DNA from: Torpedo marmorata
Lineage: Eukaryota
Direction: 5' to 3'
Length of the DNA stretch: 44,186 bases
Assembly (NCBI GenBank): GCA_977017645.1
Contig: OZ360239.1
Span: 7,254,001 to 7,298,186 of the forward strand
In this document: positions 970-35,591 of the stretch, one piece after another
Position numbering within the stretch: the first letter of the stretch is position 1
Layout: every line of letters begins with the position of its first letter
Position numbers and translations under genes: made by a program
The notes under the pieces: generated by a model
Told to the model about the DNA's origin: nothing
The model's input: only the letters and a program-made list of their open reading frames with translations
Databases searched by the model: none

Positions 970-1216
970 AAAGACAGCACCAATAGCCTGAATACGACTG
1001 GGATTGTCTGATCTCAGAAGCTAAGCAGGCACAGGACTGGTCAGTACTTGGAGGGGAGACTGCCAAGGAACACCAGGTGCTGTAGGTTTGTGTGAGGGGC
1101 GCTGGACAAAATAGCGACCCTCTGTCTGCCTTACGGTAGACAGAAATTAAAGAATTTCATGTATGTTACATTCTAAATGTAGTATTACGTGACAATAATG
1201 GAACCTTTACCTTTTT
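970..1216 (+). mobile_element. 5S rRNA-derived SINE (SINE3 type)
   Basis: 970-1089 aligns along vertebrate 5S rRNA (GTCTGATCTCaGAAGCTAAGCAGG...AGTACTTGGAgGGGAGAC...GGTGCTGTAGG) with A and C boxes. The T4 terminator is lost. It continues into a hairpin (1121-1144), TGACAATAA and an (ACCTTT)2 tail. Confidence 0.85.
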
Positions 1217-2167
1217 AAATGTTGCACCTAGGTCATTTATGAGCTGTTTGATGGGATGCTAGACTTGGGAAGAACGTCTCATATTTTAAAAACTCTTTAA
1301 TACTTTTCTACACTAATCCCATATCTCTGGAAGACCTAAATCTTTATGCATGTTTTCTGTTTGCCATAGATATAAGTAGTACTTAATTCAACTTGTGAAG
1401 TATAACGAAGAAAGAAAATGCACTTGACATCTACTACCTGACAACAGCAATAAAAAAAACTTGTATGGATTTTCCTCCATTAGCATCTAATTTGTAGAAT
1501 ATATTTTTGTAGAAATGCGCAATACTATTGAACTTGCTACAACTTAAGTGCTTGAGGCATTGAGTAAAGATGTATTGAGAGCGTGAAAGAAATGAATGCT
1601 AGAATAAAGACAAAATGTTTATTGGATGATACCAAATTGGTTGCTAGACAATTTCCGTGCAGCATCATTGCAGTAAACCAGTTTAGTGAAAAAGCATGTT
1701 TCTGTGCTGAAAATTTCATTTAATTGTAATTGACATTGTTGCTAAAAGCCTCTTTGTGTCTCGTGTTCATTTTGTAGTATATGTGTTGATGGACTAGGAA
1801 CCCAGAGGTCCAGATTAATGAATCCAAGCCCACCACTTCTCTAAATAAATGCTTGCCTTGTCAGGGATTGACCAATGAATTTAAACAAATGTCTCAACAC
1901 TCAGAATATCAGAAAAGGAAATTTTTTACTGAAAATTTGAAAAAAGTTAATTTGTGGACTTTGTTACGGTTTCTGAAGTTGAAAGCCTCTGAACTTTGGG
2001 AGTTTAGTAACAAATCACACAAAATTAGAAACTCAAAACTGTGTCCTCATACCATTATAATATGTAGATGAGTCTTAATGATCCATAACTATTTCATAGT
2101 GCTCTAACCCTTTAACTCCACAATTGTCATTTTACTAAGTATGGTTCGCTATGAGTTGATTTCATTT

Positions 2168-2985
2168 TCAAGATTCAATTTATTGTCATAGTAATAAGAC
2201 AGTCATATTCCATGAAATTTCTTTTTGCCTGCTGTAAGGCAGACAGATTCGCCACCGGCAGAAATTGCCTAAGAGCCTCTAACATTCCTTACAGTCAGAG
2301 AAACAAAAGAGAGTCCCCCAGAGTCACCGAGTGTCCATAGATTCGCCTCTAGCGCCTCCGCAGCCACACAGTCCAGTCCAAACCATCGGTAACCCGAGCT
2401 CCAGATCCAAACCTCCAACACGGTCAGGTCGCCCTCGGCACCCCCTCGCATCCCGGTTCCGATACCTGGTACTCCTCCAGCCAGTTCGAGCCAGCCTCCA
2501 GCAGTCCGCAGCCCGGCGTGAGTCCCCCGACAGCAGCCCACAGCCTCCGCGGGTTCCTCGCCTCGAGTCGCCAGCAGCCCGCCGCATGCACTGGTCCTTC
2601 AGCCTCAGAGCCCCTCACCGGTCTGCCGCCGTGGTCACTGCCCCGTGGGTCGTCTCCTCCGTTTCTCCTTCTCAGACCGGGGGGGGGGGGGTGATCTTCC
2701 CGTCCTCTGGTGCCCTGCTCCAGTCCTCCGCTTCACCGGAATCTGCACCCCATCGTGGCTGCTGCCGGTTAAAAGGCGCTGCCATCTTGGGCGCAGACCC
2801 CGTGGTCGCGGGATCTTAAATAAAACCACTGTCGGCTCCTTTAATACGGTCAAAGCCCGTGTGGAACCGACGGCAGTCGACTGGGCGGCTGGACCCCGCG
2901 GGAGCGCTGTATCTCCGCTCCCCGCGGGTCTGCACCAGCAGCAGCGCTGCGACTACAGCGGCTCCGGCAGCGCCGCCATTCTTGG
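2168..2985 (-). mobile_element. GC-rich non-autonomous retroelement with Rex1-like tail (copy lacking U2 head)
   Basis: Reverse complement is highly similar to 34826-35591. On the minus strand it begins AAGAATGGCGGCG (YY1-like) and ends TGACAATAAATTGAATCTTGA. Confidence 0.85.
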
Positions 2986-5052
2986 ACATTATTTTCGAAT
3001 GGTTTTAAGTATGAACTTTTTAAGTACAATTATTATTTTGAACTTTCTTTAATTTGTGGAGTTTAATTACAGATAGTTGTTAAACATCTCCCACTCTGCT
3101 GTTGTTTCATTCAGTCGTTGCGCTGAATTTCCTGTTTTGAGAGTTTGAACCAGTTCTACAAATTTTCTTTGAGCTGTGCTCCATCTAGTGGTGCTACTCC
3201 CAAAATCCTTTTTACCTTTTTTATTTCGACTTTTGGCTTCTGGCTGCCAATTAACGTGCTTCTGTTGAGATTTAGTTTGCCTTTGTTCATTCAGCTGGCC
3301 AGTTTTTGCCCCCTGAGCTTGGTGTGATCTTGATTTGTATTTTTTAGGTATGTATCATCTTTTTCTCCCCAAGCCTCTTTTCCAACACCCAAACATGGCA
3401 TAGTACAGTAAAACTTTCAAATTTTAACAAACAGATGGATAGACGCAAGATGTGCATGAAAATTGTGACGATGAACTTTATTGAATGTTATCCAAAGGAT
3501 AACTGTTTCTTCTATTTTAGTTTTCTTTATAATTTATGATCTAATTGACTTTATTGTCCAAATTTTTCACTTGAATATCATTCAGTTAAATTCTCTCTAT
3601 CCACTTTGCGTAAGTGACTTTGTATTGGAATTCTTATCACTTCCCATTAAGTTTATAATCTTGTATCTCAAAATTGACCGTGTGAAATTCTGTTTAGCAT
3701 TAATACATCGTATTATTTGCTTAAAACCTGGTAATTGCAGTCTAAATATTTTCAGTTTAGTTTCTTTAACCCTTCTCCTAGACCCTGTTTCATTTTGCAG
3801 GTTGTGAAGCTTGGTAAGTAAAATTATTGTTTTGGCCTTTGCTTTCAAAATTGCGTTCCTGTAGATTAATTTGAATGCTATTTTCTCAAATGTTAAGTTG
3901 AAATAAGGTGTTTGAACTCAGCAGTAAGGTTTTGTCTTGCATGTTGTTAAAATAAATTACCGATTTGATGTATTGAATTTTTAAACAAAAATAAATAAAT
4001 GAACTTGTCAGATCTTTTGTTCAGCACAATCTATGGTTGCTGAATTACTGACACATTTGAATTTCTTGTCCTGTAAACTGCAGATAGACAGAATTAATGC
4101 ACTCGAGGACCATTAACCAATGTTGAGAGTGAATCATCTGGGTTGGAATCTACCTCAGAAGCAGAAAAATTTTAATGTTGAAAAGTGTAATGCTTTACAA
4201 AACATTGTAACATTTATTTTGAATGCAAATCTAAGCACAAGATACTAAATCTTTTAAACCATAGCTGCAGATATCATCTTTCTCTTCTCATCTCAATGCT
4301 TGGCTGACTCTGCTGTAAGTTATCATGGGTGCTGAGTATCATGATATTAATTTTGGCTGTTTTACATACAAGATGAGCCTGATCCTGTTCACGCTTAACA
4401 TGTGTGCCCAAAAGTTGATGGATAGTGACGGAGACCATTCTTACCTTTGGTACATCTATTTCTGTTCCCCCCTCTCCCCAAAACCATCCCTCAAACAAAC
4501 ACTGCAGGCACTGCGGTTTGGCACGTGGGTGAAAGTAGCCAATTGCTTAGTCTGGTAATTAAATTTGACACCTTCCTGTTTTTCAAATCTTCAGTTTGGG
4601 ATTGGTTCCATCTTGTTTTTATATTCTACTAACCTCAGCAGACTTTGGCGAGCCAGAGTTCGTGTTGCTTTGGTTGATTGAGTTTCTGAGCCATATTGTA
4701 GGTGTAAAGGCAGCTATGAAACGAAACAAACTTTTTAACCAGTTTTCTTGGCTTCTGTTCCATCTGTATTCCTCTACCAAGATGGATGTGTGGGCCTACT
4801 TCACAGGAATTCATTTGTAACACAACCTTCGTGAATGGATAGTTACCAAAACAAAATGATATGGCCAGTCTGATGAAAATTGTGCTAATTCTTCAGGCTA
4901 TCTGCATTGAACTCTGAATGCTCTGCTTTTGGGATCCTTACAGTTGGTGGTGTAGATATTTTGAACTCTTGACTTTGGGGATAGTTCCCTCAGTAGCATT
5001 GGTAGCTCTGGGTAGTTATTACCTATATTCATGTGTGGAGTTTCTTTTGCAG

Positions 5053-5109
5053 GTGCAGCAGGATGTGTGGCGACTTTGTTTCATGATGCAGCCATGAACC
5101 CTGCTGAAG
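5053..5109 (+). CDS. slc25a28: Mitoferrin-2, 57-bp coding exon (equivalent to exon 3)
   Basis: Not in the ORF track. ttttgcAG acceptor (5051-5052) and GTaatg donor (5110). Phase 1/1; reads (G)AAGCVATLFHDAAMNPAE and joins the flanking exons in frame. Confidence 0.96.
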
Positions 5110-5488
5110 GTAATGTTAATTGTGTTAAGAATTTAATCTCTAAAGCTGCCCTTGTTTATCATTGTTGTGCTTGAAAATGTGTAAGTAACCAAAACAAAAT
5201 ATTTCGCCTGTAAATTCGGGCCTGCATTGCTCTTTTGAAGAGCATGATGTAGTTCGAGGTTTCTAGGTCTCTGCAATATTACTTGACTGTGCCTTTCCTG
5301 AATCATGGGAATGTTATTGGAGTATTTGTTCAACCTTGCTCTTGTTGTTTTCATTTTGGAACAATTTTTTTGTTCATTTCCCTTAAAGCCATTGCCATCT
5401 GTTGGCATTTCAGTGTAGTAATGATGTAGGACAAGACAGCTTGGGCTGTCATTACAGAAAAATTGCCTTTCCTCAAAAATAGTTATCC

Positions 5489-7237: not shown

Positions 7238-7416
7238 ATAGTGACCTGGTATCTTTTTAAAAGATGTTAGGAGAATTGGATAATGCATTTCATACGAGCA
7301 ATTACACTAAAAAAAAAAAAGAATCTTATCAGAAAAAATGCTTTAGGATGTCATGATCAATAGTATACAAGTGAAAGACATTTTTATTGAAGTAATTTCT
7401 TACTAAATTGAATTTC

Positions 7417-8344
7417 TATAGAACCATATACCACAGAAAACAGGCCATTCTAGTCTGTGCCAAAATATTATTCCGCTAGTCCCATTGACCTGCACCCAGT
7501 CCATAACCCTCCAGACCTCTCCCATCCATGTTTCTATCCAATTTATTCTTAAAACTTAAGAGTGAGCCCGCATGTACCATGGCAGCTCGTTCCACACCCC
7601 CACCACTCTGAGTGAAGAAGTTCCCCCTAATGTTTCCCCTAAACCTTTCCTCTTTCACCCTAAAGCCATGTCCTCTCGTATTTATCTCTCCTAATCTAAG
7701 TGGAAAGAGCCTACTTGCATTTACTCTGTCTATATCCCTCATAATTTTGTAAACCTCTATCAAATCTCCCCTCATTCTTCTACGCTCCAAGGAATAAAGT
7801 CCTAACCTGTTTAATCTTTCCCTGTAACTCAACTCCTGAAGACCCGGCAACATCCTAGTAAATCTTCTCTGCACTCTTTCAATCTTACTGATATCCTTCC
7901 TGTAGTTTGGCGACCAGAACTGCACACAATACTCCAAATTTGGCCTCACCAATGTCTTATACAACCTCACCATAACATCCCAACTCCAGTACTCAATACT
8001 TTGATTTATGAAGGCCAAGATGCCAAAAGCTTTCTTTACAACCCTGTCCACCTGTGATGCCACTTTTAGGGAATTATGTATCTGTATTCCCAGATCCCTT
8101 TGTTCCTCTGCACTCCTCAGTGCCCTACCATTTACTGTGTACTACCTTGGTTTGTCCTTCCAAAATGCAACACCTCACACTTGTCTGCATTAAATTCCAT
8201 CTGCCATTTTCTGGCCCATTTATCCAGTTGGTCCAGATCCCTCTACAAGCTTTGAAAGCCTTCCTCGCTGTCCACAACGCCTCCAATCTTAGTGACATCA
8301 GCAAACTTGCTGATCCAATTTACCACATTATCATCCAGATCATT
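7417..8344 (-). mobile_element. CR1 LINE 3' fragment
   Basis: ORF 7476-8063 has the CR1 ORF2 C-terminus (LYKTLVRPNLEYCVQFWSP...RRRMRGDLIEVYK); CR1-type tail near 7417-7460. Confidence 0.92.
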
Positions 8345-8651: not shown

Positions 8652-8691
8652 TTAGATTTTAGATTTCAGATTTATTGTCAGAGTACATACA
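8652..8691 (-). mobile_element. Rex1/Babar 3' tail remnant
   Basis: AGATTTCAGATTTATTGTCAGAGTACATA is identical to the tail at ~15190-15218. Confidence 0.7.
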
Positions 8692-9400: not shown

Positions 9401-9409
9401 AGAGTTTTA

Positions 9410-10202: not shown

Positions 10203-10294
10203 AGGTGGTAATTCTGCCTCGCCTGCAGGAAAATAGAATCTCAGGGTTGTACGTGATGTCATGTATGTACTCCGACAATAAATCTTAAATCTGA
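10203..10294 (+). mobile_element. Rex1/Babar 3' end fragment
   Basis: GGTAATTCTGCCTCGCCTGCAGGAAAATAGAATCTCAGGGTTGTACGTGATGTCATGTATGTACTCCGACAATAAATC matches the reverse complement of ~15195-15276. Confidence 0.8.
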
Positions 10295-10795: not shown

Positions 10796-10826
10796 TTACG
10801 TGACAATAATGGAACCTTTACCTTTT
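10796..10826 (+). mobile_element. Severely 5'-truncated copy of the 5S-SINE tail
   Basis: TTACGTGACAATAATGGAACCTTTACCTTTT is identical to the end of the element at ~1185-1215. Confidence 0.7.
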
Positions 10827-12321: not shown

Positions 12322-12585
12322 AAGTATCTTATCTAAGAGGCCCATCTTTATGTGTGAGCTTGGGCAGGGCTAGATGATGGCCTGTTAAGCAGTGAAGGGC
12401 AGCACGTGGCATGTTTACCAGTGGCGGTTTTGGCACTTCCATTCAATCCACCCAACAAAAAATTATAAATGCCTCTGTTCCATTGGGCCAGAATCTGAAG
12501 AGTATTTTGGAGCAGCAAACTTCAACCCCAGTCATTCCCCCAATATTTTGAAAATATTTCAAATGGTTTAAGAAAATATGAAGAT

Positions 12586-14710
12586 CAAATATCGCCAAAA
12601 TTTTCTTTGACACGATCTACGAGACAGGGATGTCCCCTGTCACCAGCTTTATTTGTTTTGGCAATAGAACCTTTGGCTGAATTAGTTAGAAAAGATCCTA
12701 AAATAGTGGGTATTAAAGTTGGTATGGAAGAACATAAGATTAGTTTGTTTGCAGATGATGTATTTATATATATGACAAAATCTATTATATCACTTCAACA
12801 ATTATCTATTATACTCAGAGAATATGGTGAAATATCTGGATATAAAATTAATTCAGATAAGAGTGAAATAATGGCTTTATCTCAAGGTGATTATACTAGA
12901 TGTAAAGAAATAACACAATTTAAATGGGCTAAAGAGGGAATTAAATATTTAGGGGTTAAGGTTGATACAAAATTGGAAAACTTATATAAATTAAATTATT
13001 TTACCATTATTTGTGAAAATAAAGAAAGATTTAGAGAATTGGAAAGATTTACCTATAACTTTAATGGGAAGGGTAAATTGTATTAAAATGAATATTTTTC
13101 CAAGAGTTCAGTATCTTTTTCAATCAATTCCTTTTGGAATTCCTCAATTTTTAAAAAGATTTAAATTTTATTATTAGGAAATTTTTGTGGAAAGGAAAGT
13201 TAGCAAGAGTAAGTATGGAAAAGTTAACTTGGAATTATGAGTTGGGTGGATTGCAACTTCCTAATTTTCAAAATTATTATAAAGCAGCCCAATGAAAATT
13301 TGTTAATGAATTTTTTGATTCAAATAAAACTTCTGCTTGGATTAAAATAGAATTAAATAATATAGGAGAAAATTTTAAAGAAGAGATTATTTATAAATGG
13401 GATTCTAAATTAATATCAGTAAAAAAGAAAAATTCACCGATTATTAAACATTTGTTAGAAATATGGGGTAAGTTGGATAAAGAGATAGGTGGAAGAGGAT
13501 TAATTTCTTCAAATATGCCACTATATCAAAATGGACTTATACCATTTACTGTTAACAATCAATTATTTAAAATTTGGTTTCAAAAAGGTATTAAGAAGAT
13601 TAATGATTGTTTTGAAGCTGGAAGATTTATTACGTTTCCAAGAATGAAAGATAAATTTAATATATTAGATAATACATTTTTAGCTTATTATCAAGTTAAA
13701 GCTTTTTTAACCGAGAAATTAGGTCATGCTTTGATTTTACCAAGACAAAATGAATTAGAATTATTAGTTACTAATGGAGAAGTTAATAAATTTATTTCTC
13801 AAATGTATAAATTGTTTCAGAGGAAAATGCCTAAAATAGGATTGCATAAATCAAGATTAAAATGGGAATTAGATTTAAATGTAAATATAGATGAAAATCA
13901 TTGGAAAGATTTATGTAAGTTAAGTATGAAAAAAATTATTAATGTTAGATATAGATTAGTACAGTATAATTTCTTTCATCAATTGTATTTAAAACCTAAA
14001 AAATTAAAGAAATTTAATCCGACATTATCAGGACCATGTTTCAGATGCAATAATGAGGAAGGTTCTTTTGTTCATTCTACATGGTTTTGTCCAAAGATTC
14101 AAGATTTTTGGTTGAAAGCTAAATTTTTTTTTAGATAAAGTATTTAATATTACATTTCCAATGGATCCTATGTTATTTTTATTTGGAGATATTAGAAAAT
14201 TTAGTATTAAAAATAAATTAAATATGTTTCAAGTAGAATTTTTACGAATTGCTTTAGCGGTTTCGAAAAAATGCATTGCTATTACTTGGAAATCTGATTT
14301 AGATTTAGGATTAGAAAGATGGCATGCAGAGCTTCGTTCGTGTATACCACTGGAAAAAATTACTTATAATTTACTTAATAAATATCATTTCTTTTTGAAA
14401 ATTTGGAGCCCATATATGAGAGCTGTGGGTTTAGGGATTTGAAGATCTCTAGATATCGGATCTACTGGCATACTTGACCTCCGTAATAGAATTAGTTTAT
14501 AGATGATATTCCCCTTACACTATCTTTTCCTTTTTTTTTCTATTTCTATTTTTATTTTTTTACTTATATTACTAGATTAGTGGGGATGGGGGGTTAGGGA
14601 GGGGAGGGAGGTGGGGGGGGTGTAAAATGTATCACATGTATTTTGATGATATATTTTATTTTATGTATTTTGTGATTAAAAGTTTAAATAAAATAATTTA
14701 AAAAAAAAAA
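12586..14710 (+). mobile_element. 5'-truncated L1-clade LINE (copy 1), frameshifted ORF2 RT and C-terminus
   Basis: TRQGCPLSP, FADD and CFRC...H....C motifs; G-rich 3' UTR, AATAAA at 14687-14692 and poly(A). 15-bp TSD AGAAAATATGAAGAT (12571-12585 / 14711-14725) at a TTT/AAG site. Confidence 0.95.
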
Positions 14711-15181
14711 AGAAAATATGAAGATTCATTAGCTTGAATCAAATTTCCTCAAGTTCGAACTTAATTGTTCTTGAGTATATCCCAGAAATGTCTGCTCTTC
14801 CTATTCTGCCACCTATCCATTTGTGTTAATGGTTACTTGTACCTAATTTTCAAATAAACAGGAGGTAGAATGAAATTTGTGCTGTGGGAAGCACTCTGGT
14901 TATAAATTGTAGTAATATATTGTACAGACTGGATTCAGATTGCTTTCTGCCTTGACACCTGAACTGTTTGTTTTTCCAGTGTTTCTTCCTGGAATTTATT
15001 TTGCAGGAATTGGGACACTGAACTTTGCTCATTGTGCAATGACAATGAAAGTAGATTATTTAAAGTAAGCCTAAGTTCTGACCCATGGGAACAGAGGCAT
15101 TTGCAATTTTTAACTAGGTGGTTTGAATGGAAGTGCCAAATGTAATACAGGTATATATTCACTATTCACTGCTGCAGTAAC

Positions 15182-16258
15182 TCAGATTCAGATTTCAGAT
15201 TTATTGTCAGAGTACATATATGACATCACATACGACCCTGAGATTCCTTTTCCTGCGGGCGCGGCAGAATTACCACTAATTGGTAGTGCAAAAAATAACT
15301 ACATAGCGTAAAACATGTAAACAAACAAAGAACCGTAAACAAACTCTGCAATACAGAGAGAACAAAAGAAAATCAAAGTGCATAAGAAAGAGTCCTTAAA
15401 TGAGTCTCTGATTGAGTTTGTCGTTGAGGAGTCTGATGGTGGAGGGGTAGCAGCTGTTCTTGAACCTGGTGGTGCGAGTCTTGTGGCACCTCTACCTCTT
15501 TCCTGATGGCAGCAGCGAGAACAGAGCATGTGCTGGGTGGTGAGGGTCTTTGCTGATTGCTGCTGTTCTCCGATGGCAGCGCTCCCTGTAGATGTGCTCA
15601 ATAGTGGGGAGGGTTTTGCCTGTGATGTCCTGGGCTGTGTCCACTACCTTTTGGAGGGCTTTACGCTCCGGGGTATTGGTGTTTCCATACCAGACTGTGA
15701 TGCAGCCGGTCAGCACACTTTCTACCACACTTCTGTAGAAATTTGCCAGCGTTTCTGATGTCATACCAAACCTCCGCAAACTCCTGAGGAAGTAGAGGCA
15801 CTGACGTGCTTTCTTCACGATGCCATTAGTGTGTTGGGTCCAGGAAAAATCCTCCGAGATAGTGACTCCCAAGAACTTAAATTTGCTCACCCTCTCCACC
15901 TCTGATCCCCCAATGATCACTGGATTGTACACCTCTCGGTTTCCTTTCCTGAAGTCAACAATCAGCTCCTTAGTTTTGGTGACATTGGTGCAACAATAAC
16001 AACCTTGCACTCATTCAGCCAAGTTTTCTATCTCCATCCTGTATGCTGACTCATCTCCTTCCTTTATACAGCCCACTACCGTGGTATCGTCAGCAAATTT
16101 GTAGATGGTGTTATTGTCGTACTGAGTCCCACAGTCGTAGGTGTAAAGTGAGTAGAGCAGGGGGCTAAGAACACAGCCCTGTGGTGCTCCGGTACTAATA
16201 GAGATTGTGGAGGAGAAGTTCTTACCAATCTTCACTGATTTTGGTCTGGAGGTGAGGT
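15182..16258 (-). mobile_element. Rex1/Babar-type LINE 3' fragment
   Basis: STGAPQGCVLSPLLYSLYTYDC...KFADD, then KKARQxLYFLRSLRRFG...FYRSVVESVLTGCITVWYG (DUF1891-like). Tail TGACAATAAATCTGAAATCTGAATCTGA. Confidence 0.88.
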
Positions 16259-18954: not shown

Positions 18955-19117
18955 TTTCACTAACTTGTTTCCTGTTCTCTCCCTTTTAATGTTTTATTTT
19001 TGTTGCTCTAACCCATCTCTCTTTGACATGACCTGCACTTGTGACCTGGGATGGCCTGGAAACCCTGTCTCAACTTCCCTTTCCTTTGGACTGGAACCTT
19101 TGTGTTAACCTTCGCAG
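18955..19117 (+). promoter_or_regulatory. Distant branch point, polypyrimidine tract and AG-exclusion zone of the last slc25a28 intron
   Basis: No AG between 18955 and 19115. CACTAAC at 18958-18964 is directly followed by a ~45-nt pyrimidine-rich tract; second CTCTAAC at 19006-19012. Confidence 0.7.
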
Positions 19118-19638
19118 TGGTGAAGCAGAGGATGCAGATGTACAACTCTCCCTACAAGCATGTGTTGGACTGTATGAGGACAGTGTGGAAAAATGAAGGG
19201 GCTGGAGCATTCTACCGGAGCTACACTACCCAACTGACTATGAACATCCCCTTCCAAGCTGTTCATTTCATGACTTATGAGTTCTTGCAGGAAAAGTTGA
19301 ATCCTCACAGACAGTATAACCCCTCCTCGCACGTTCTCTCTGGCGCGATGGCAGGGGCTGTATCAGCAGCAGTAACAACACCACTGGACGTTTGCAAAAC
19401 ACTACTAAACACACAGGAATCCTTGGCTCTGAACTCCCTCAACATCAGCGGACATCTTTCTGGCATGGCAAATGCCTTCAGGACGGTTTACCGACTGGGT
19501 GGTATCCCAGCATATTTTAAGGGAGTTCAGGCCAGGGTTATCTACCAGATGCCATCTACAGCTATTGCCTGGTCTGTGTATGAGTTTTTCAAGTACTTCA
19601 TTAGCAAACATCACCGTGAAAGGAGGTCAACTTACTGA
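19118..19638 (+). CDS. slc25a28: Mitoferrin-2, last coding exon (equivalent to exon 4)
   Basis: ttcgcAG acceptor at 19116-19117. Reads (V)[12 protein letters not shown]...[15 protein letters not shown] (SLC25 PxD/ExxK signature)...[10 protein letters not shown] to TGA at 19636-19638. Confidence 0.96.
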
Positions 19639-21120: not shown

Positions 21121-21125
21121 GTTTT

Positions 21126-24100
21126 TTGTTTTTTTAAATTTTTATATAATTTTATTTAAATTTTAAAATCACAAAATACATAAATCAAAAATAATATATC
21201 ATTCCAAGTACATGTGATATATTTCCTCCCCCCTCCCACCCTCCCCTCCCCAACCCCCCCACCACTACTCTAAAAAAAAGAAAAAGAGAAAAAAAAATAT
21301 TAGTTATAAAGAAAAAAAAAGAAAAGAATTGAATAATAAAGAATTAAAGAATTAAAGTGAGGAGAAAACAAATTACAAGCTAATTCTATTTATATATTGG
21401 AGGTTAGTTTTGCCAGCGGAGCCGACTTCTAGAGAATTAATTCATACCCATAATTCTCATATATGGGCTCCAAATTTTCAAAAAGAAATGATATTTATTA
21501 CGTAAATTATATGTAATTTTTTCCAATGGTATACATGAACGTAATTCTGCATGTAATCTATCTAAATTCAAATCTAAATCTGATTTCCAAGTAATAGCAA
21601 TACATTTTTTTGAAACCGCTAAAACAATTTGCAAAAATTCTATTTGATACATATTTAATCTATTTCTAATACTAAATTTTTTAATATCTCCAAATAAAAA
21701 TAACATAGGGTCCATTGGAACCGTAATATTAAAAATTCTATCCAAAAAATCTTTAACTTTAGACCAAAAGTCCTTAATTTTAGAACATAACCATGTTGAA
21801 TGAACAAAAGAACCAATTTCATCCTTACATCTAAAACACATATCTGATAATGCCGGATTAAATTTCTTTAATTTTTTAGTTGTTAAATATAATTGATGAA
21901 AAAAATTATATTGTACTAATCTATACCTAACATTAATAATTTTAGTCATACTCAATTTACATAAATCTTTCCAATGTTTTTCATCTATATTAATATTTAA
22001 GTCTGATTCCCATCTTAATCTTGATTTATGAAATCCTACCGTAGGCATTTTTCTCTGAAGTAATTTATACATTTGTGATATAAATTTGTTAACATTTCCA
22101 TTAGTAATTAATAATTCTAATCCATCCTGTCTTGGAGCTATTAATTGATTCCCCAATTTCTCAACTAAAAATCCTTTAACCTGATAATAAGCTAAAATTG
22201 TATTATCCAATATTCCAAATTTTTCTTTCAGCCTGGAAAATGTAACAAATCTTCCAGCCTCAAAACAATCTTTAATCTTCTTAATTCCTTTTTGAAACCA
22301 TAATTTTAAAAATTGATTATCAATAGAAAAAGGTAATAATAAATTCTGATACAATGGCGTATTTGGAGATAATAACCCTTTTCGTCCTATCTCATTGTCT
22401 AACTGTGTCCAAATTTCCAACAAATATTTAATAATCGGTGAATTTTTCTTTTTAATTAATAATAATTTAGAATTCCATTTATAAATAATATCTTCTTTAT
22501 ATCTCTCCCCTATATTATTCAATTCTATATTAATCCAAGCAGTAGACTTAGTTAAATAAAAAAATTCATTAATAAACTTTAATTGAGCTGCCTTATAATA
22601 ATATAAAAAATTGGGGAGTTGTAATCCACCCATCTCGTAATTCCAAGTTAATTTATCCATACTTACTCTCGCTAATTTTCCCTTCCATAAAAATTTCCTA
22701 ATAATAATTTTTAAATCTTTAAAAAAATTTTGAGGAATTCCAAAAGGAATAGATTGAAAAAGGTATTGAACTCTTGGAAAAATATTCATTTTAATACAAT
22801 TCACTCTTCCCATTAAAGTTATAGGTAAATCTTTCCAATTCTCCAAATCTTTCTTTATTTTCTGAAATAAAGGTATATAATTTAATTTATATAAATTTTC
22901 CAATTTTGTATCTACTTTAACTCCCAAATATTTAATTCCTTCTTTAGCCCATTTAAATCCTGTGACTTCTTTGCATTTAGTATAATCTCCTTGAGATAAA
23001 GCCATTATCTCACTCTTATCCGAATTTATTTTATAACCAGATATCTCACCATACTCCCTCAATATCTTAGCTAATTGTTGAAGTGATACAATAGATTTCA
23101 TCATATATATTAATACATCATCTGCAAATAGACTAATTTTATGCTCTTCTGTACCTACTTTAATCCCATTTATATTAATATCTTTCCTAATCATTTCAGC
23201 CAACGGTTCTATTGCCAATACAAATAAAGCAGGTGATAAAGGGCATCCTTGTCTTGTTGACCTCATCAAAGGGAATTTAGATGATATTTGACCATTTGTA
23301 ATTACTCTAGCTGTAGGTTCTTTATATATAGTTTTAATCCAATTTATAAAAGTATTCCCAAATCCATATTTCTCTAAGACCTTAAATAAAAAATTCCATT
23401 CTAGTCTATCAAATGCTTTTTCTGCGTCTAATGTTATCACCAACGGCAAATCTTGTTTCCTTTTTTGCAAATTAATTAAACTTATTAATCTTGCTATATT
23501 ATCTTTTGAATATCTATTTTTAATAAATCCTGCTTGATCTGAATGTATTAAAATTGGTAAATACTTAGCTAATCTATTTGTCAAAATTTTTGCCATTATT
23601 TTATAATCTACATTCAACAATGATATAGGTCTGTATGACTCAGTTTTTAATACATCTCTATCTTTCTTTGGTATAACTGTAATAATAGCATTCAAAAAAA
23701 GTTTTCGGTAATAAATAAGTTTCCTTAATTTGAGTCAATACTTCCATATATATAGGTATCAATAAATCTTTAAACTCTTTATAGAACTCTATCGGAAATC
23801 CATCATCACCAGGAGATTTACCACTTTTCAATGTCGATAAAGCTTCAACTACTTCTCTCATTGTAATAGGTAAATCTAACATATCTCTATTAAAATTATT
23901 TAGTCTAGGTAATGTAATTTTGGATAAAAATCTATTAATTTTTGTATCATCATGATCAATCTGAGAGGTATATAAATTCTGATGATATTCTCTAAAAGAT
24001 TCATTTATTTCCTGAGGTTTATAAGTTATTTCACCAGTACTTTTTTTTATAGCATTTATAGTTTTAGAAACTTGTTCTTTTTTTAATTGCCATGCTAAAA

Positions 24101-25098
24101 CTTTATGTGCTCTTTCTCCTAATTCATAATATCTTTGTTTCGTTCTATCAATTAATTTTTCTATTTTTCGAGTTTGTAATATATTATAATGCAGTTTCTT
24201 CCTAATTAAACGTTGTCTCCTAAAAATTGTTTTATTTCTTTGAAAATCTTTCTCCATAAATTCAATCTCCCTTTCCAATTTTCCTCCTTCTTTCAAATAA
24301 TCTTTTCTAATTTTTGCCGAAAAACTTATTATCAAACCTCTTAAATAAGCTTTTAAAGATTCCCAAATTATAAATTTATCATTAATCGAATTGTTATTTA
24401 TTCTTAAAAATTCCTGAATTTCTTTTCTTATATATTCACAAAAATCTTTCCTATTTAATAAAGAAGAATCAAATCTCCAGTTGTATACAATTTTTTCTTT
24501 CTCTGGAATTATACACGTCATCAATAAAGGTGAATGATCTGAAATTATTCTTGCTTTATAAGATATTTGAGTTACTCTATCCTGAATTTGTGAAGATATC
24601 AAAAATAAATCAATCCTAGAAAATGAATTATGTCTAAAAGAATAAAATGAATAATCTTTTTCTCTAGGGTTTAATTTCCTCCAGATATCTACCAGATTCA
24701 AATCTTCCATTAAATTAATAATTCTTTTAACTATTTTAGGTCTAGCAAGTGTTCTAGTAGTTCTATCCATGTTCGCATTTAAACAACAATTAAAATCTCC
24801 ACCAATTAAAATATTTTCCTTAGCCTCAGATAAATGTAAAAAAGCATCTTGAATAAACTGTTCGTCATCCGAATTTATAACATATAAATTTAAAAAAGTC
24901 CATATTTCTGAATAAATTTGACAATGTATTAAAACATATCTACCAGCTACATCAGTCACTACTGATTGTATTTTAAATGGTAATTTTTTATTAACTAAAA
25001 TCGCTACACCTCTCGCTTTAGAATTAAAAGATGAAGCTACTACATGTCCTACCCAGTCTCTTTTTAACTTTTGATGTTCCTTATCAATCAAATGTGTT
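21126..25098 (-). mobile_element. L1-clade LINE (copy 2), nearly complete ORF2
   Basis: APE endonuclease motifs (THL, GGDFN, SRID, SDH), RT (FADD) and CCHC knuckle. Truncated within the QE codons of the endonuclease. TSD ACAATGGTGTTTT (21113-21125 / 25099-25111); poly(A)-derived T tract at ~21126. Confidence 0.96.
21437..25098 (-). pseudogene. L1 ORF2 (endonuclease plus reverse transcriptase) split by a single +1 frameshift at ~23694-23700
   Basis: ORFs 23658-25175 and 21437-23695 overlap at a T7 run. Removing one T gives a continuous ...LLPKTFLNAIITVIPK... frame. The ORF-track N-terminus upstream of 25098 is flanking sequence. Confidence 0.85.
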
Positions 25099-25105
25099 AC
25101 AATGG

Positions 25106-25779
25106 TGTTTTGTTGAGAAAGTGTCAAGTTCGGTGGGTTCAAAGAGAGACGAGTCTGGATTATAAGGGTTTGCAATCAAATGTAACTTTATTAACACAAC
25201 AATTAATGAGAGAATTTATAAGGGAGCGTGGGAACATAAGCACAATTTATAAGCGTGGGAACATACGCGCACACAATTTATAAGGGAGCGTGGAACAGAC
25301 CGTAATGGGAAACAGGGGAGAACGTCAAACAGTACACAATTATTAATGCACACAGGCGATGCAGTCACTTGCACCCTATAAGCAGGGGTTATACACAACC
25401 TTCCAGACCCCTGAATAAGGGAAGGTGGATCTGGTACCACTGTACCCACAGGGGTATACTCATCCTCTCGGACCCCTGATCAGTTGAGAGGTGGATCTGG
25501 TACCACTGTACCCGCAGGGGTACTGGTGCTAAATAAGGGCTCGAGCCAATAAGGACGCTGTGTGTTTTGAACCAGCCAATGGCAAGGTGTGCACTGGCCA
25601 GTGGTCTGAGCCCACTCTTAACTGGCATTCCACCTGCAATTTGTAACTTTGTCTATAACTTTGTAACTGAGCGGAACAAAAAGTACACTATGTACTGACA
25701 GGTGGTGTGACTTCCAAATGAGTTTCAGGCGGGGAGGCTACGTGACCACTAGCAATAGGCAGGGAGCCTCCCCCACACA
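25106..25779 (-). mobile_element. Probable solo LTR
   Basis: 674 bp with TG...CA termini (minus strand TGTGTG...CAACAAAACA). Minus-strand AATAAA at 25187-25192, ~80 bp from the end. Internal tandem repeats at 25213-25296 and 25423-25523. No short TSD. Confidence 0.7.
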
Positions 25780-28400: not shown

Positions 28401-28594
28401 TATAAAATGTATTGCAGCATAAAAAATGAAGGACAAAGGCAACAGATGTAAAAATGCAGGTACCACAAGTCTTATCAATTCAATATCTTGGCTTAATATG
28501 GATTTAGAGCATTCAACCCATTAAAACCATAACATTCCCTTTATCTGTAATACTGTAAATTATTTTTCTTGTGCTCTTTAATTCTTTTATTATC

Positions 28595-28770
28595 ATTAAG
28601 GTTAATTTAGAGTAGATAATTAACCTACTAGCATATCTTTGGCATGTGGGAGGAAACCAGAGCATGCAACAGAAAACTACATGGTCAAAGGGAGAACATG
28701 CAAAGTGCACACATGCTGCACCTGAGGTCAGGATCATACCTCAGTTCCCTGGAGTTTAGAGGCAGCAGTG
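28595..28770 (-). mobile_element. Degenerate V-SINE
   Basis: ATGTGGGAGGAAACCAGAGCA...AGGGAGAACATGCAAA is the reverse complement of the V domain. Confidence 0.7.
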
Positions 28771-28972
28771 ATAGCCAAGAATAGGAGCAGGCCATCTGGC
28801 CTGTTGAATCTGCTCCACCATTCATTAAGATCATGGCTGATCTGGCTGAGGACTCAGCTCCACCTACCTGCCCTTTTCCCATAACCCTTGATTATAAACA
28901 TCTTTATATTTAATGTAATTGTTTCTTTGGACAGATTCATTATCTGGGAAAAGCAGTTTCTCATATCCATCT

Positions 28973-29238
28973 TGGGCGGCATGGTTGGCGAAGCGGTTAG
29001 AGCAACGCCATTACAGCGCCAGCGATCGGGACCGGGGTTCGAATCCCGCGCTAAGGTGCTTGTACGTTCTCCCCGTGTCTGCTTGGGTTTTCCCCTGGGG
29101 GCTCTGGTTTCCTCCCACCGTTCGAAACGTACCAGGGGTGTAGGTTAATTGGGTGTAAATTGGGCATCATGGACTCGTTGGCAGAAATGGCCTGTTACTG
29201 TGCTGTATGTCTAAATTTAATAAATTTAAATTTAATAA
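28973..29238 (+). mobile_element. tRNA-derived V-SINE (HE1-like)
   Basis: A box TGGCGAAGCGG, B box GGTTCGAATCC, V domain GTTCTCCCCGTGTCTGC...GGTTTCCTCCCAC, CR1-like tail and TAAATT repeats. Confidence 0.9.
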
Positions 29239-29249
29239 AAATATTGAAA

Positions 29250-30405
29250 TTTACTCCCCCTTAATCTTGAGGTTATGTCCCCTAATTCTAGTCTCACCAA
29301 CAAGTTGAAACAACCAATTTCCTCTGTTATGGGCAAGAGACTGTTCACCTGATCTATTCCTGTCATGATTTTGTGCGCCCCTCATCCTGCGCTCCAAGGA
29401 ATAAAGCCCCAGCCTTCTTAACCTCTCCCTATAGCTCAGGCCCCCGAGTTCTGGCAACATCCTCGTAAACCTCTGCACCCTTTCCAGTTTGACGACATCT
29501 TTCCTATAGAATGGTGACCAAAAGGGAATGTAATGCTCCAAATGATTCCTCACCAACATCTTGTGCAACTGCAAATGACCTCTTAACTACATTCAATATT
29601 CTTAACTGATGAAGGTCAATGTGTCAAGTCTTTTTGACCACCCTGTCCAGCTGTGACACCACTTTCAAGGTACTATGTACATGTACTGCAAGATCCCTCT
29701 GCTCTACAACATTCCTCAGATCCCTACATTCACTGTGTAGATTCTATACGTTAGGTCTCCCAAAATGCAACACTTCATATTTCTCTGTATTAAATTCCAT
29801 CAACCATTCCTATGCCCACCTGACTAACCGATTCAAGACCCTGCTGCAATCTTTGGCAACTGACTATCTACAATACAGACACTTTAGCGTCATCCACAAG
29901 CTTGCTAATCCTGCCATGTATATTTTCATCTAAATCTTTATTGATGACAAACAACAATGGCCCCAAAGAACCCACTAATCACAGGCCTCCAGTCTGAAAA
30001 ACAACCTCCAATCATCACTGTTTTCTACCATGAAGCCAACTTTCTATCCATCCTGCTATTGCATCTTGAATGTCATGTGATCTATCCTTCCAGAGCAACC
30101 TACTATGCAGAACCTTATTGAATTTCTTGCTGAAATCCATATATACACCTCTACAGCTCTGCCCTCGTCAACCTTGGACACGTCCTCAAATAAAGCTCCC
30201 TTAGATTTGTGAGACATGACCTCCCAGTTAAAATCATGCTGATTATCCCTTAACAGCCCTTGTCCATTCAAGACTATGTATATCCTCCTCAGAATACTCT
30301 CCAGTAATTTACCAACCACAGATGTTAGGCTCACTGTCCTGTAGTTCCCAGGCTTTTCCCTGCAGCCTTTCTTGAATAGAGGCACAACATTTGTCACCCT
30401 CCATT
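29250..30405 (-). mobile_element. CR1 LINE fragment (degenerate)
   Basis: NVVPLFKKGCREKPGNYRTVSLTSVVGKLLE and KDVVKLERVQRFTRMLP motifs. Confidence 0.9.
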
Positions 30406-31114
30406 GTTTAAGGTTGATCCTGGAGACTAGGGCATATTTATTTCTGAGTTCTGTGAGTACTGTGGATTCTGAGGTGCATTTATATTTTCCTAATCCCTCT
30501 CTTGAGATAGTTGATGGGGCACAGAGCAAGAATTATACTGGGTTGCTCTTTGTCCTGTCACCAATGGGGAAATAAGTGATAAGTATTTTGGGGTAAGTAG
30601 TTATTTTCCTTCCCCTTCACACCATGAAAATTCATTGAAAATTTGCACCACAAAATGAAGCCATTTGGGTGGTTGTACCTGTGCCACCCAAGAAAGGTGT
30701 AAACTAGCCCAATCCCAGATTTCCACCAGTAGCTCTTCATTCCTCCAGGTTGAAATTCAAATGCACATCATACTAAAATGTGAGAAGGCTTACATTTCTC
30801 CTACCCTTTCCAGCAATGTTTCCCCCCCCCCAACCTTTTTTGGTGGGGGGAGAAAAAAACCCTCATTTCGCCTCTAATTGTACAAACTACTTCAAAACTA
30901 CGCCCCATTGATTTTGAACCCTCTGCTAAGAGAAATTGTTCCTTTCTACTTCCTGTTTTTGACCTCCGCATTATACACCTCAGTTTAACCTCTCCTCAGA
31001 CTCCATTATTACAAAGAAAACAAGTCCTGGCAGCATCGTCCTTAATCTCCATGCACTTTCCAGTGAAATTACTTATTTTTCTTTTAACGTGACGAAAAAT
31101 GCACAAAGTACCCA

Positions 31115-32683
31115 TTACAAAGTGATGAGGAAAATCTTAAATGGATTTTTTTTTGCATCTGTATTTACTCTGGAGAAGGATGCAGAGTTTATAGAAGTGA
31201 GGCAAAACAGTGAGGTCATGGATCCTGTACAGATTACAGAGGAGATGCTTCCTGTCTTCAGGCAAGTAAGGGTGGATATAACCCCTGGGCTTGACAAGAT
31301 ATTCCCTCAGACCTTAAGGGAAGCTAGTGCAGAAATTGCAAGGGCTCTAGCAGAGGTATTTAAAAACGTCCTTAGCCACATGAGATGCCAGAGGATTGGT
31401 GGATAGCTAAAGTTATTCTGTTGAAGAAAGGTTGTAAGAATAATCTGGGAAATTATAGGCCGGTGAGCCTGACATCAATGATGAGTAAGTTATTGGAAGG
31501 TACTCTCAGAGACTTTATAGACTGATTATGGATAGTCAACATGGCGTTGCATGGTAGGTCATGTCTAACCAATCTTATAGTTTTTTTGAGGTTACCAAGA
31601 AAGTTGATGAGGAAAGGCAGTGGGTGTTATCAACAAGGAATTTAGTGAGCACTTTGACAAGGTCCAAGGTCCCACAGTTGGTCAATATTCAGGATGAGGT
31701 AGTAAATTGGATTAAACATTAGCTTTGTGGGAGAAGCCAGAGAGTGGTAGTAGATGATTGCCTATCGAACTGGAGGCATGTGACTCATGAATGATGTACC
31801 TCAGAGATTGATGCTGGGCCCATTGTTTGTCATCTATATCAACAATCTGGATGATAATGTGGTAAATTAGATCAGCACATTTGCAGATGACACTAAAATT
31901 GGGGGTGTAGTGGATAGCGAGGAAGGCTTTCAAAGTGTAGTGAGATCTAGACCAGCAAGAAAAATGAGCTGCAAAATGGAAGATGGAAGTTAATGCGGGC
32001 AAGTGTTTGGGAAGACAAACCAGGGTAGAACTTGCATGGTAAGCGGAAGAACGGAGGGATCTGGGAATGCAGGTACACAATTCCATGAAAGTGGCATAAC
32101 AGGTAGCTAGGGTAAAATAAATTTTGACGCATTGGCTTCATAAATCAAAATATTGAGTACAGGAGTTGGGATATGTTGAAGTTCTATAAGAAAAGGAAAA
32201 ATGTCAATAAGATTGAGTGCAGAGAAAATTTGCAAGGATGTTGCCGAGATGAGCTGAATTATATGGAAAGGTGGAATAGGTTAGGACTTTATTCCTTTGT
32301 TGGAAAATGAGGGGAGATTTGGTAGAGGTATGCAAAATTATGAGGGGGATAGATAGGGTAAATGAAAGCAGGCTTTTCCCACTGAGGTTGGGTGAGACAA
32401 GAACTAGAGGACAGGGGTTAAGGGTGAAAGGTGAAATGTTTTAAGATAACATAATGGAGAACTTCAGTCAGGGTGGTGAGCGTGTGGAACGAGCTTCCAG
32501 CTCAAGTGGTGAATGAGGCTTCAATTTCAACATTTAAGAGAAATCTGGATAGGTACATGGATGGGTACATGGATGGGAGGGGTATAGAGGGATATGGTCC
32601 AGGTGCAGGTCGACGGGACTAGACAGAATGATAGTTTGGCATGGACTGAAGGGCCTGTTTCTGTACTGTAGTGTTCTATGGTT
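31115..32683 (+). mobile_element. CR1 LINE fragment with 3' tail (degenerate)
   Basis: FFASVFT, GNYRPVSLTS and FADDTKIGG coding remnants; tail GGGCCTGTTTCTGTACTGTAGTGTTCTATGG. Confidence 0.9.
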
Positions 32684-32886
32684 TTTTGTTCATTAACTTG
32701 TCCCCTGCATTCTAATCTGTCTCAACTAGTAAAGGAAAGCATGGCCAGATGTGGATTCATTTTTAACCACTTTTTTTGATCTGCCTTGTAATTTCAGGGA
32801 TTTGTGGACATATATTTCCCATTATCTCTGTTTCTCCGTGTATCTTATATTGTGTATTCCCTTGATAAATGCCCCCAAGTGTATTT

Positions 32887-33531
32887 CCATAAGACCATAG
32901 GAAAAATTGAAGGAGCAGAAATAGGCTATTCAGCCCATCGAGTCTGTCCCACAATTTATCATGAGCTGATCCATTTTCCCACTCGGCCCCACTGCCCGGC
33001 CTTCTCCCCATAACCTTTGATTCCCTGGCTAATCAAGAACCTGTCAATCTCTCTTAATTACACAATGACTTGGCCTCCACAACCGCCTGTGGCAACAAAT
33101 TCCACAGATTCACCACCCTCTGGCTAAAGAAATTCCTCCACATCTTTATTCTAAGTGGGCACCCTTCATTCTTGGAGTTGTGCCCCCCCCCCCCCTGTCC
33201 TAGACTCTCCCACCATGGGAAACAACCTTTCTACATCTACTCTGTCCATGCCTTTCAACATTCAAAATGTTTCCATGAGATTCCCCTCATTCTGCTAAAT
33301 TCCAGTGAGTACAGGCCCAGAGTTGTCAAATGCTCCTCATATGATAACCCTTTCATTCCTGGAATCATCCTTTTGAACCTCCTCTGAACCCTCTCTAACA
33401 TCAGTACATCCTTTCTTAAATGAGGAGCCCAAAACTGCTCTCAGTACTCTGTGAGTCATCAAGAGTGCCTAATAAAGCCTCAATATCACATCCCTGCTCT
33501 TGTATTCTATTCCTCTTGAAATGAATGCCAG
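32887..33531 (-). mobile_element. CR1 LINE 3' fragment
   Basis: CATAAGACCATAG...GGAGCAGAAATAGGCTATTCAGCCCATCGAG tail and CR1 C-terminal sequence. Short related tails at ~9937-10015 and ~28778-28892. Confidence 0.85.
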
Positions 33532-33597
33532 CTTTACCTGACACTTGCCAATTGGTATTGTTTCTGAAGTGCCTCTGCTATTCTTTATATCCAGTTT

Positions 33598-33823
33598 GAA
33601 ACACTATAGGCTGCAGACGCTGTGATTGTAGTAAACACACCGAAATGCTGGAGGAACTCAGCCGGTCTTTTCAGCATCTATAGGAGACAGATATTGCTGA
33701 CATTTCGGGCCTGAGCCCTTCCTTTTTTTTGGAAGAAGGCTCAGGCCCGAAATGTCGGCAATAAATCTTTGTCTCCTATAGATGCTGAAAAGACCGGCTG
33801 AAGTTCCTCCAGCATTTCGGTGT
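33598..33823. mobile_element. Penelope-like palindromic insertion
   Basis: Two ~85-bp inverted arms (33637-33721 / 33735-33823) around a T-rich loop; 14-bp TSD TTTATATCCAGTTT (33584-33597 / 33824-33837). Confidence 0.82.
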
Positions 33824-34567
33824 TTTATATCCAGTTTCACTTCTGGCAGGTTTAAAGAAAAAGTACACATCTCCTTTTTAACAATCTTCGTTCATTGGAA
33901 AACATTTTATGCCAACTTTTAAAATGCCACTGCAAGACAATTTGAAGAGCAAGGTCCCTCAAGCGATCGAGATATCAGAAATAAACTTAATTTAAGGTAG
34001 AATTGAGCAGGACACTTTGGAGGACTCTGTCACCAGAGTGTCTTTGGATCTTTCTCTTCCAGCCACTACCCAGGTGTCACTAGGAAAGATTGCTTCATTT
34101 TTTTGTTGCTTTTAAAATCTTTAATGTGCAACCTCATTGAATTCCATATGGGAAATGGAGATCTAATTGGTCCAATTACACTGGACACAAGATTTTGCTT
34201 CCAGAACACTTTTGGGTGTATTTTATGGATTTTGGGCTGTTGATCGCGAAAATCACCGTAAAATTTTCCCATCACATACTTTTTTTAAGATATAACCTAT
34301 TATTGTGATTACCTGTCATATTTTAAGTCTACTTCAAGCACAAAACCATGAATTGCAACATGTCATTGAAAATTCATTTTCTGCATTCACACTTGGACTT
34401 CTTCCCTGCTGATCTTGGTGCAGTCAGTGATGAACATGGTGAAAGGTTTCACCATGACGTGACCATGGAAAAGCAGTATCGGCAACTGGAATCCATCAAT
34501 GCTGGGTGACTATTGGTCATTGACACGAGAAGCATCAGATGCTGAGTACAAATGCAAATCAGCGGCA

Positions 34568-34757
34568 ATCGCTTCTCGGCCTTATTGGCTAAGATCATGT
34601 GTAGTTTCTGTTCTTATCAGTTTAATATCTGGTAGGTCCCTGACCAGAGGGACCGTGGATTAAATTGGTTTTTGGAGCAGGGAGGTTGGGCAGGAGCTTG
34701 CTCTGTGCACTCCACGCATCAACCTGGTATTGCAGTGTCTCTGGGAATGGTGCACTT
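34568..34757 (+). pseudogene. Full-length diverged U2 snRNA-like sequence (head of a retroposed element)
   Basis: ATCGCTTCTCGGCCTTaTTGGCTAAGATC...TTCTTATCAGTTTAATATCTG...GGAGCTTGCTC...CACTCCACGCATC...CCTGGTATTGCAGT...GGTGCAC is colinear with vertebrate U2. Branch-pairing sequence reads GTAGTT instead of GTAGTA. Upstream is transposase sequence, not an snRNA promoter. Confidence 0.92.
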
Positions 34758-35591
34758 CCCATCCATGGGAGGAGTCGGGACATCAAAGTTAGAATTTATC
34801 ATGGGGTCTTTGGGGGTCTTGCACCTGCCGCTGTAATGGCAGCGCTGGTGAGGACCCACAGGGAGCGAGGGAGCGGAGATACAGCGTTCCCGCGGGGTCC
34901 AGCCGCCCAGTGTCGGTTCCGCACAGGCTTTGAACAGCCCGTTAAAGGAGCTTATGGTGGTTTTATTTGAGATCCCGTGACCGCGGGGTCTGCGCCCAAG
35001 ATGGCAGCGCCTTTTAACCGGCAGCAGCCACGAGGGGCTGAGGACAGGAAGATCACCACTCGTCTGAGAAGGAGAAGCGGAGGAGACGACCCACGGGACG
35101 GTGACCACGTCGGCGGACCGGTGAGGGGCTCTGAGGCTGAAGGACCAGTGCATGCGGTGGGCTGCTGGCGACTCGAGGTGAGGAACCCGCGGAGGCTGTG
35201 GGCTGCTGGAGACTGCTGTCGGGGGACTCACGCCGGGCTGCGGACTGCTGCAGGCTGGCTCGAACTGGCTGGAGGAGTACCAGGTATCGGAACCCGTATG
35301 CGAGGGGGTGCCGTGGGCGACCTGACCGTGTTGGAGGTTCGGATCTGGAGCTCGGGATACTGATGGTTTGGACTGGACTCTGTGGCTGTGGAAGCGCTGG
35401 AGGTGAATCTATGGACACTCGGTGACTCTGGGGGGGACTCCCTTTTGCTTCTCTTTCTCTGACTGTAAGGAATGTTAGAGGCGCTTAGGCAATTTCTGCC
35501 GGTGGCGAATCTGTCTGCCTTGTAGCAGGCAAACAGAAATTTCATGGAATATGACACTGTCTTATTACTATGACAATAAATTGAATCTTGA
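34568..35591 (+). mobile_element. U2-headed non-autonomous retroelement (SINEU-like candidate)
   Basis: Removing 34568-35591 restores the host codons TCA GCG GCA|AAA CAT TTT TAG, so U2 head, linker, GC-rich body and tail most simply form one insertion. Confidence 0.8.

Follow-up and report, generated by a model that had tools for sequence, protein, structure and literature searches.

The 44,186-nt stretch OZ360239.1:7,254,001-7,298,186 of Torpedo marmorata (assembly of 6.2 Gb), referred to here as the window, raises the question of how elements with different heads came to end in the same order of hairpin, motifs and short tandem repeat. One carries a 5S ribosomal RNA (rRNA)-derived head, another stands behind a U2 small nuclear RNA (snRNA), and the third is a Rex1-like long interspersed element (LINE). 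The best explanation, which taken as a whole we consider probable, is that a passenger lineage with a Rex1-type tail has been copied in trans by Rex1 reverse transcriptase (RT), that this lineage gained heads, and that the U2 head was acquired by read-through. RexA to RexF are labels coined here for LINE families, and GC element is the label for a non-coding GC-rich element. The genome was covered by sampled loci of about 1.1-1.5 Mb together with pattern counts, which is a sample and not an exhaustive search, and the pattern counts were run against reversed-pattern controls. In public sequencing runs, at most 0.39 of the query words were matched. Target-site duplications were short or absent and were left unused.

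The hairpins and motifs of all three element types were recovered at the positions that an earlier note on this DNA had assigned to them. On the plus strand, the head of a 5S short interspersed element (SINE) lies at 974..1088, where the 30 best copies begin or start a few bases away (Rfam match at 970-1088, 44 bits, above the 38-bit cut-off), and what we take to be boxes A, IE and C can be discerned in it by eye. It is followed at 1087..1215 by a body and tail common to a tRNA-headed SINE, with the tail repeat ACCTTT, hairpin 1 at 1121..1144, the motifs AATTTCATG at 1153 and TGACAATAA at 1190, and hairpin 2, a conserved covarying stem-loop, at 1157..1192 (base UCAUGU/ACGUGA). The GC element is present twice. 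A headless full-length copy occupies 2165..2983 on the minus strand (start A-ATGGCGGCG, tail repeat TCTTGAA, hairpin 1 at 2226-2245). The other copy, on the plus strand, lacks its first ~17 nt (34827..35592; hairpin 1 at 35512..35531, motifs at 35538 and 35571, hairpin 2 at 35542..35573 with base UCAUGG/CUAUGA) and stands behind a complete, diverged U2 variant at 34568..34760 (Rfam 146.5 bits, model positions 1-192) and a 66-nt linker at 34761..34826. The LINE is a 5'-truncated RexA copy on the minus strand at 15186..16257 (5' limit approximate), which retains the RT end, PF09004 and the 3' untranslated region (UTR), with hairpin 1 at 15251..15269, motifs at 15245 and 15209, and hairpin 2 at 15207..15241 (base UCAGGG/CUCUGA). 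Chance does not account for these tails, since each comes from a family that numbers thousands of copies and no match was obtained with the reversed-pattern controls.

When folded, the tails show two hairpins. Hairpin 1 varies among families, and the differences in it that had been read as preserving the pairing (T-A versus T.G, G.T versus G-C) are one-sided changes, not compensatory ones. The conserved part of the module is hairpin 2, missed by the earlier note, at whose base the TCAKG of AATYTCAKG and the TGA of TGACAATAA form the two strands. Pairs 3-6 of this hairpin are canonical in 30 of 32 cells across eight families (sizes: 5S 56, young GC 44, old GC 5, RexA 17, RexB 12, RexC 7, RexD 28, RexF 2), counted on majority bases per family in a register set by hand and among families that are kin; as many canonical pairs were reached in only 4 of 40,320 permutations of the 3' strands. 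The tRNA SINE was dropped from this count as a duplicate of the 5S SINE and the RexE type was left out, and pairs were counted by anchoring because the MAFFT alignment shifted hairpin 2 of the LINEs out of register. Pair 3 occurs as A-U, G-U and G-C, pair 4 as U-A, U-G and G-C, and pair 5 as G-C, G-U, C-G and U-A, so that the changes across families include two-sided ones. Covariation, which had been proposed as a check, is thus present across families, but in another hairpin than the one named. The 3' module that these elements share is the one in which the Rex1-like LINEs of this genome generally end.

The passengers that carry this tail are numerous. The headless GC element is ~830 nt long and non-coding, and its tail pattern gave 30,991 genome matches (reversed control 0). 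In a sample of 30 such tails, 16 reach their own 5' end region and 14 are 5'-truncated, with none bearing a U2 head or a joined open reading frame (ORF). A looser pattern added 6,624 tails, and all 30 sampled fit the GC element at 65-87%. A 21-mer of the SINE tail has 24,808 exact genome matches (control 0); among the first 30 by position, 26 have a whole or partial 5S head, 3 are cut within the tail and 1 has a tRNA head. Genome-wide, there are 22,048 head-body junctions for 5S and 1,621 for tRNA. The tRNA-headed SINE (L144:1363-1560; L211-L230), absent from the earlier note, has a body and tail identical in kind to those of the 5S SINE; 40 of 40 scored matches reach 96-100% and the head is present in 20 of 20 loci, its identity as tRNA-Thr(UGU) being read by eye where ARAGORN made no call (L144). 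Median non-CpG divergence is 2.5% for the GC element (n = 37), 1.4% for the 5S SINE (n = 29) and 1.1% for the tRNA SINE (n = 19, a score-biased sample).

The 5S element, which is ~240 nt long and multi-copy, with a head over the Rfam cut-off, a LINE-type tail and no T4 ahead of the tail, fits SINE3 by its sequence, and the tRNA-headed element, with a tRNA-derived head on a short multi-copy element, fits SINE2 in the same way; the tRNA-headed element likewise has no T4 runs ahead of its tail, and both are probably young and of Pol III (RNA polymerase III) type. Of 120 positions, the SINE tail has 98 in common with an intermediate GC subfamily; with RexA the figure is 74 of 120, with many gaps. 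As the SINE body fits this GC subfamily better than any LINE, the SINE tail was taken from the GC lineage, and the GC, 5S and tRNA passengers can be treated as one lineage. SINEs are reportedly able to take tails from other SINEs, to go by the title of a 2007 work by Matveev. The headless GC element is presumably the oldest form, to the last ~130 nt of one subfamily of which a 5S head and a tRNA head were probably each joined, giving the two SINEs. The modular head-swapping proposed by the earlier note is real as an exchange of heads on one body, between 5S and tRNA and not with U2. The GC element starts with AARATGGCG, as do full-length RexA and RexB, and contains T4 runs; for these two reasons, it is likely a product of RNA polymerase II (Pol II).

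With regard to the LINEs, RexA, RexB and RexD carry RT and PF09004; their 3' UTR is conserved and gives way to short repeats that vary. All of the 120 homologues listed share RT and PF09004, and the named ones come from teleosts. In a tree built without a named Rex1 reference, the RTs of these three families fall together with unnamed teleost PF09004 LINEs (96/97) and separately from RTs of CR1 and L1 type. The Rex RTs contain the peptide [FY]SSAFNT, which corresponds to the Rex1 forward primer, with a poor match to the primer DNA (7-11 mismatches). The Rex1 label is given because of this motif and of a 3' layout like that described in the passages seen of a Rex1/Babar review (PMC6274825). Full-length RexB measures 3.24 kb with one frame of 999 aa (RT, PF09004 and weak endonuclease matches below the cut-off), and near-intact ORFs are present. 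RexA and RexB, when full-length, begin with AARATGGCGCC and then GGCGACTYTYTG; this 5' motif has 3,402 matches in all, and 27 of 30 sampled are RexB 5' ends. RexD (L361-L380) has an unlike 5' end with no AARATGGCG, and its tail ends in GACAAATAAAGG with TGACT repeats, hairpin 2 being kept. Median divergence is 6.5% in RexA (n = 12), 2.7% in RexB with a lower quartile of 1.3% (n = 23), 4.6% in RexC (n = 6) and 1.7% in RexD (n = 6). RexB and RexD overlap in age with the SINE burst, and only RexB of these two shares the UCAUG stem base.

By running a passenger-tail profile over ~1.2 Mb of loci, 362 matches were obtained; RexA (47) and RexE-type tails lead the non-passengers, and a few unclassified matches are weak. 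The best non-passenger tails belong to PF09004-bearing LINEs, which agrees with the view of the earlier note that the passenger tail is of Rex1-like type, and this profile picked out no recurring tail family of CR1 or L1. Mobilisation of the passengers in trans by Rex1 RT is likely from these comparisons. The passenger lineage ends in a tail of hairpin plus ACAATAAA, as Rex1-like LINEs do, and the RT would read the shape of the tail and not its letters. The young RexB appears a likelier engine than the RexA of the window. At three loci (L289, L296, L299), a RexA tail repeat passes directly into a truncated GC tail via a common AATCT, an overlap that suggests microhomology between tail and target at insertion.

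The U2-headed copies are few. The junction between linker and body occurs at 9 places genome-wide (up to 2 mismatches), on nine contigs, and the same nine copies are those that extend 5' among 40 scored matches. They share one junction, their starts are staggered within U2 or the linker, with one exactly at +1, and they have no common 5' extension; U2 is complete in one of them. Compared with 30,991 GC tails and with 0 of 30 position-sampled copies, these nine do not support the U2-headed passenger family that had been claimed, and at 2165-2983 the second GC copy of the window begins at its own 5' end, without a U2 head. The U2-headed copies fall short of the high copy number of SINEU and are a minority chimera of the headless family. 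The genome contains two classes of U2 genes, a tandem array and a second class, U2-B. The 66-nt linker is homologous to the 3' flank of U2-B genes (45/61, 49/63, 44/63 and 44/63 identical positions, versus 33/60 for the flank of the tandem array), and it keeps what we take to be a 3'-box-like motif. Since identity of the head is 86% with either class, its donor would be a third variant. Of the 8 U2-headed bodies in a tree of 51, 7 group (90/94; bootstrap not settled), L003 being excluded by a length filter. The end branches are all alike (0.028-0.036), which argues for one burst. The nine copies are likely the result of read-through from one U2 gene: one GC copy would have landed 66 nt behind such a gene, and its read-through transcripts would have given rise to nine U2-headed retrocopies, which would lack an upstream U2 promoter and were likely dead ends.

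The window copy itself was considered as the source gene and rejected, given that it has no U2-gene-like upstream region, as compared with the fetched loci, and an ordinary end branch. An octamer, ATGCAAAT, is found at 34551-34558, 16 nt upstream of the U2 start; it is too close for a distal element and probably due to chance. An 80-kb U2-B cluster on C42 showed no U2 followed immediately by a GC element, and U2-B copies form a small cluster at C42:55.74-55.79 Mb. A seemingly intact U2-B gene is found at L067:1200-1760, with an octamer at -185 and a stretch near -60 that we take to be like a proximal sequence element. The tandem U2 array at C78:10271225-10300675 (L070-L080) has a 2,926-bp unit, each unit with a RexB 3' fragment. 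In L081-L085 and L088 (near 1500), poly(A) LINE 3' ends lie inside U2 near position 35-42, in both U2 classes, and RT-like frames are seen upstream in L081 and L085; these insertions resemble Keno (Tx1) as it appears in the passages seen of Kojima 2015 (PMC4494074).

Several results weigh against the explanation by Rex1 RT and read-through. With the passenger-tail profile, LINE tails score at most 11.9 bits (E of 0.18 or more) and RexB 6.3 bits; local tail alignment favours RexA (z of 4.6 and 9.0) over RexB (0.1 and 1.7), and RexA, at 6.5%, looks older than the SINEs at 1.1-1.4%. Only 4 of 9 folded tails clearly beat shuffles (z of -5.6, -4.2, -2.7 and -2.4), and the other 5, RexB and RexC among them, range from -0.4 to -1.7. 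AATYTCAKG is not invariant, since one intermediate GC subfamily reads AAGTATATCATG. No LINE with a passenger tail was met among position-sampled tails (0/30 GC, 0/30 older, 0/30 SINE), and among 148 matches to a Rex ORF end plus passenger hairpin, 30 of 30 examined were nested or adjacent passengers (in 28, the LINE has its own tail on one side of the passenger; in 2, the passenger body sits inside the LINE 3' UTR). On the U2 side, one of the U2-headed bodies (L008) lies apart from the clade, with one clade of 8 not rejected (p-AU 0.448), and the source locus was not found. These data leave room for a rare, unsampled LINE with a tail almost identical to that of the passengers as the true stringent partner. 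Published SINE/LINE pairs described in the part seen of PMC3747384 have near-identical 3' ends, a close match is lacking in all four abundant families, and the ORF-end pattern, being built on RexA and RexD, could miss other LINE families. Nevertheless, a LINE with a near-identical 3' end is absent from the sampled data: neither the 90 position-sampled tails nor the 30 of 148 ORF-end loci contain one, the sister Rex1 family with matching tail repeats that the earlier note allowed for was not seen in either sample, and a PF09004 search with ends inspected at 7 of 30 loci returned RexD in every case. Moreover, no single donor tail is expected, as the passenger tail has drifted and its subfamilies stand at 65-95% identity. 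We therefore regard such a rare partner as unlikely, and retain copying by Rex1 RT.

Two other origins of the U2 head compete with read-through. A single template switch onto a 3'-extended U2 precursor, with the chimera then amplified from a host promoter, would be in line with snRNA chimeras of this origin in print (PMC4494074, seen in part), with a GC body that is complete but for ~17 nt at its 5' end, and with the fact that no locus was found that combines promoter, U2 and GC element. A chimera expressed from a host promoter would, however, share a 5' extension, whereas the full-length copy starts at U2 +1 and none is shared, and the 66-nt flank extends well beyond the 3'-box-like motif; this origin retains a minor share of the probability. 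Far more improbable is the version of the earlier note, in which U2 is the working head of a SINEU-like family and the Pol II partner in modular head-swapping. It could appeal to nine copies of one structure dispersed on nine contigs, to a complete U2 in one of them and to L008 as a possible second body, but 9 copies against ~31,000 come near to refuting it, the 3' flank of the U2 gene is retained, and the alike end branches (0.028-0.036) point to one burst. U2 promoters, in addition, lie upstream of the RNA in the passages seen of PMC4494074, and the sole full-length copy is without such a region. Read-through from one U2 gene remains the preferred origin of the nine copies.

Concerning the origin of the GC element, its body gave no significant match to the 5' regions of RexA, RexB and RexD. 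A two-block motif like that of Rex 5' ends sits just ahead of hairpin 1 in the passengers, and one pattern, built after seeing the data, hits both (1,188 matches; of 30, 20 are GC tails and 10 Rex 5' ends). The test of this shared start and two-block motif is weak, as the best score is attained by 35 of 1000 shuffles and 7 of 8 comparisons fall short of significance, and a profile of LINE 5' ends run on the passengers gave a best E of 0.19. Three loci (L391, L392, L462) hold single, internally deleted Rex copies in which the 3' UTR directly follows the 5' end; the short 5'+3' deletion of L392 was considered and rejected, being single-copy among 41 matches. A broader proposal, tentative and open to considerable doubt, is that Rex1 LINEs sustain long-lived, sequence-independent passengers by the shape of the terminal hairpin, that the 130-nt module is an internally deleted Rex1 with its two ends fused, and that the nine U2 copies are a failed birth of a SINEU with the 3' flank of the gene still attached.

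Each ingredient of the Torpedo system is already known; publications describe tails common to different elements, the exchange of 5S and tRNA heads, heads derived from U2 and a single Rex1-SINE pair. That pair is SINE2-5_NV and Rex1-24_NV of Nematostella, a SINE and a Rex1-clade LINE with a common 3' end, according to the parts seen of PMC3472496 and PMC3747384; it has a tRNA head only and another tail sequence, whereas Torpedo has 5S, tRNA and headless passengers and no matching LINE found. The salmonid SlmI, HpaI and OS-SINE1 with the LINE RSg-1 (passages of PMC3747384, PMC5135761, PMC3272025) resemble Torpedo in combining heads of tRNA and of 5S origin with a single LINE-type tail, but there the matching LINE is known. 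If RSg-1 belonged to the Rex1 clade, a 5S SINE on a Rex1 tail would already be known; no clade for RSg-1 was found in the literature searched. HaSE1/HaSE3 (PMC3272025) and CoeSINE4/CoeSINE5 (PMC5786205), in the portions seen, also have 5S and tRNA heads on an identical body plus tail, with RTE-clade partners. SINEU of crocodilians, in the passages seen of Kojima 2015 (PMC4494074), has a U2-derived 5' end and staggered 5' truncation, as do the Torpedo U2 copies, yet reaches hundreds to thousands of copies with poly(A) and Tx1 partners, compared with 9 copies, a gene 3' flank and a Rex1-type tail; the Torpedo copies match the chimeras or read-through products that Kojima distinguishes from SINEU in that same text. 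Rex1/Babar LINEs were described as APE-RT elements (apurinic endonuclease and RT), mostly 5'-truncated, with a conserved 3' UTR and then variable short repeats; the review passages seen (PMC6274825) name neither a hairpin nor passengers, unlike the Torpedo tails. Bipartite non-autonomous LINEs such as Bov-A and RIME are, like the GC element, non-coding, with a LINE-type tail, a LINE-like 5' start and RNA heads added later, and are reported only for RTE, Ingi, Vingi and R2 in the part seen of PMC5786205; between the GC body and RexA, RexB or RexD, no significant match was obtained. A 5S SINE or a headless passenger on a Rex1-type tail was not found in the literature searched; Repbase and Dfam, outside this search, may hold such families.

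The remaining features of the window complete the picture of the locus. RexA tail remnants lie at 8658..8691 (minus strand, short) and at 10205..10294 (plus strand, both hairpins present), and a 31-nt tail remnant of the 5S/tRNA SINE, 100% identical to 1185-1215, at 10796..10826 (plus strand). The 5S SINE, the headless GC copy and the RexA copy are all situated between 442-671 and 19045-19638, presumably exons of a mitoferrin-like carrier gene, as named from the translation. Two copies of a different tRNA-type SINE, without this tail module, occupy 35827-36069 and 28988-29242. There are also three L1-type LINE copies (12585-14716, 21124-25175 and 37214-40904), one with endonuclease and RT frames, and CR1-type fragments at 7418-8340, 29378-29808 and 31845-32679.

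The covarying terminal hairpin, of which no description was found in the literature searched, offers a testable recognition signal for Rex1 LINEs. If the broader proposal on the GC element were true, Rex1 would join the four clades known to spawn bipartite elements. On one and the same tail, the genome presents a natural series, in which heads with an internal promoter reach 22,048 (5S) and 1,621 (tRNA) junctions and a head with an external promoter reaches 9 (U2). This copy-number series bears on how SINE heads are gained and on the rarity of snRNA heads.

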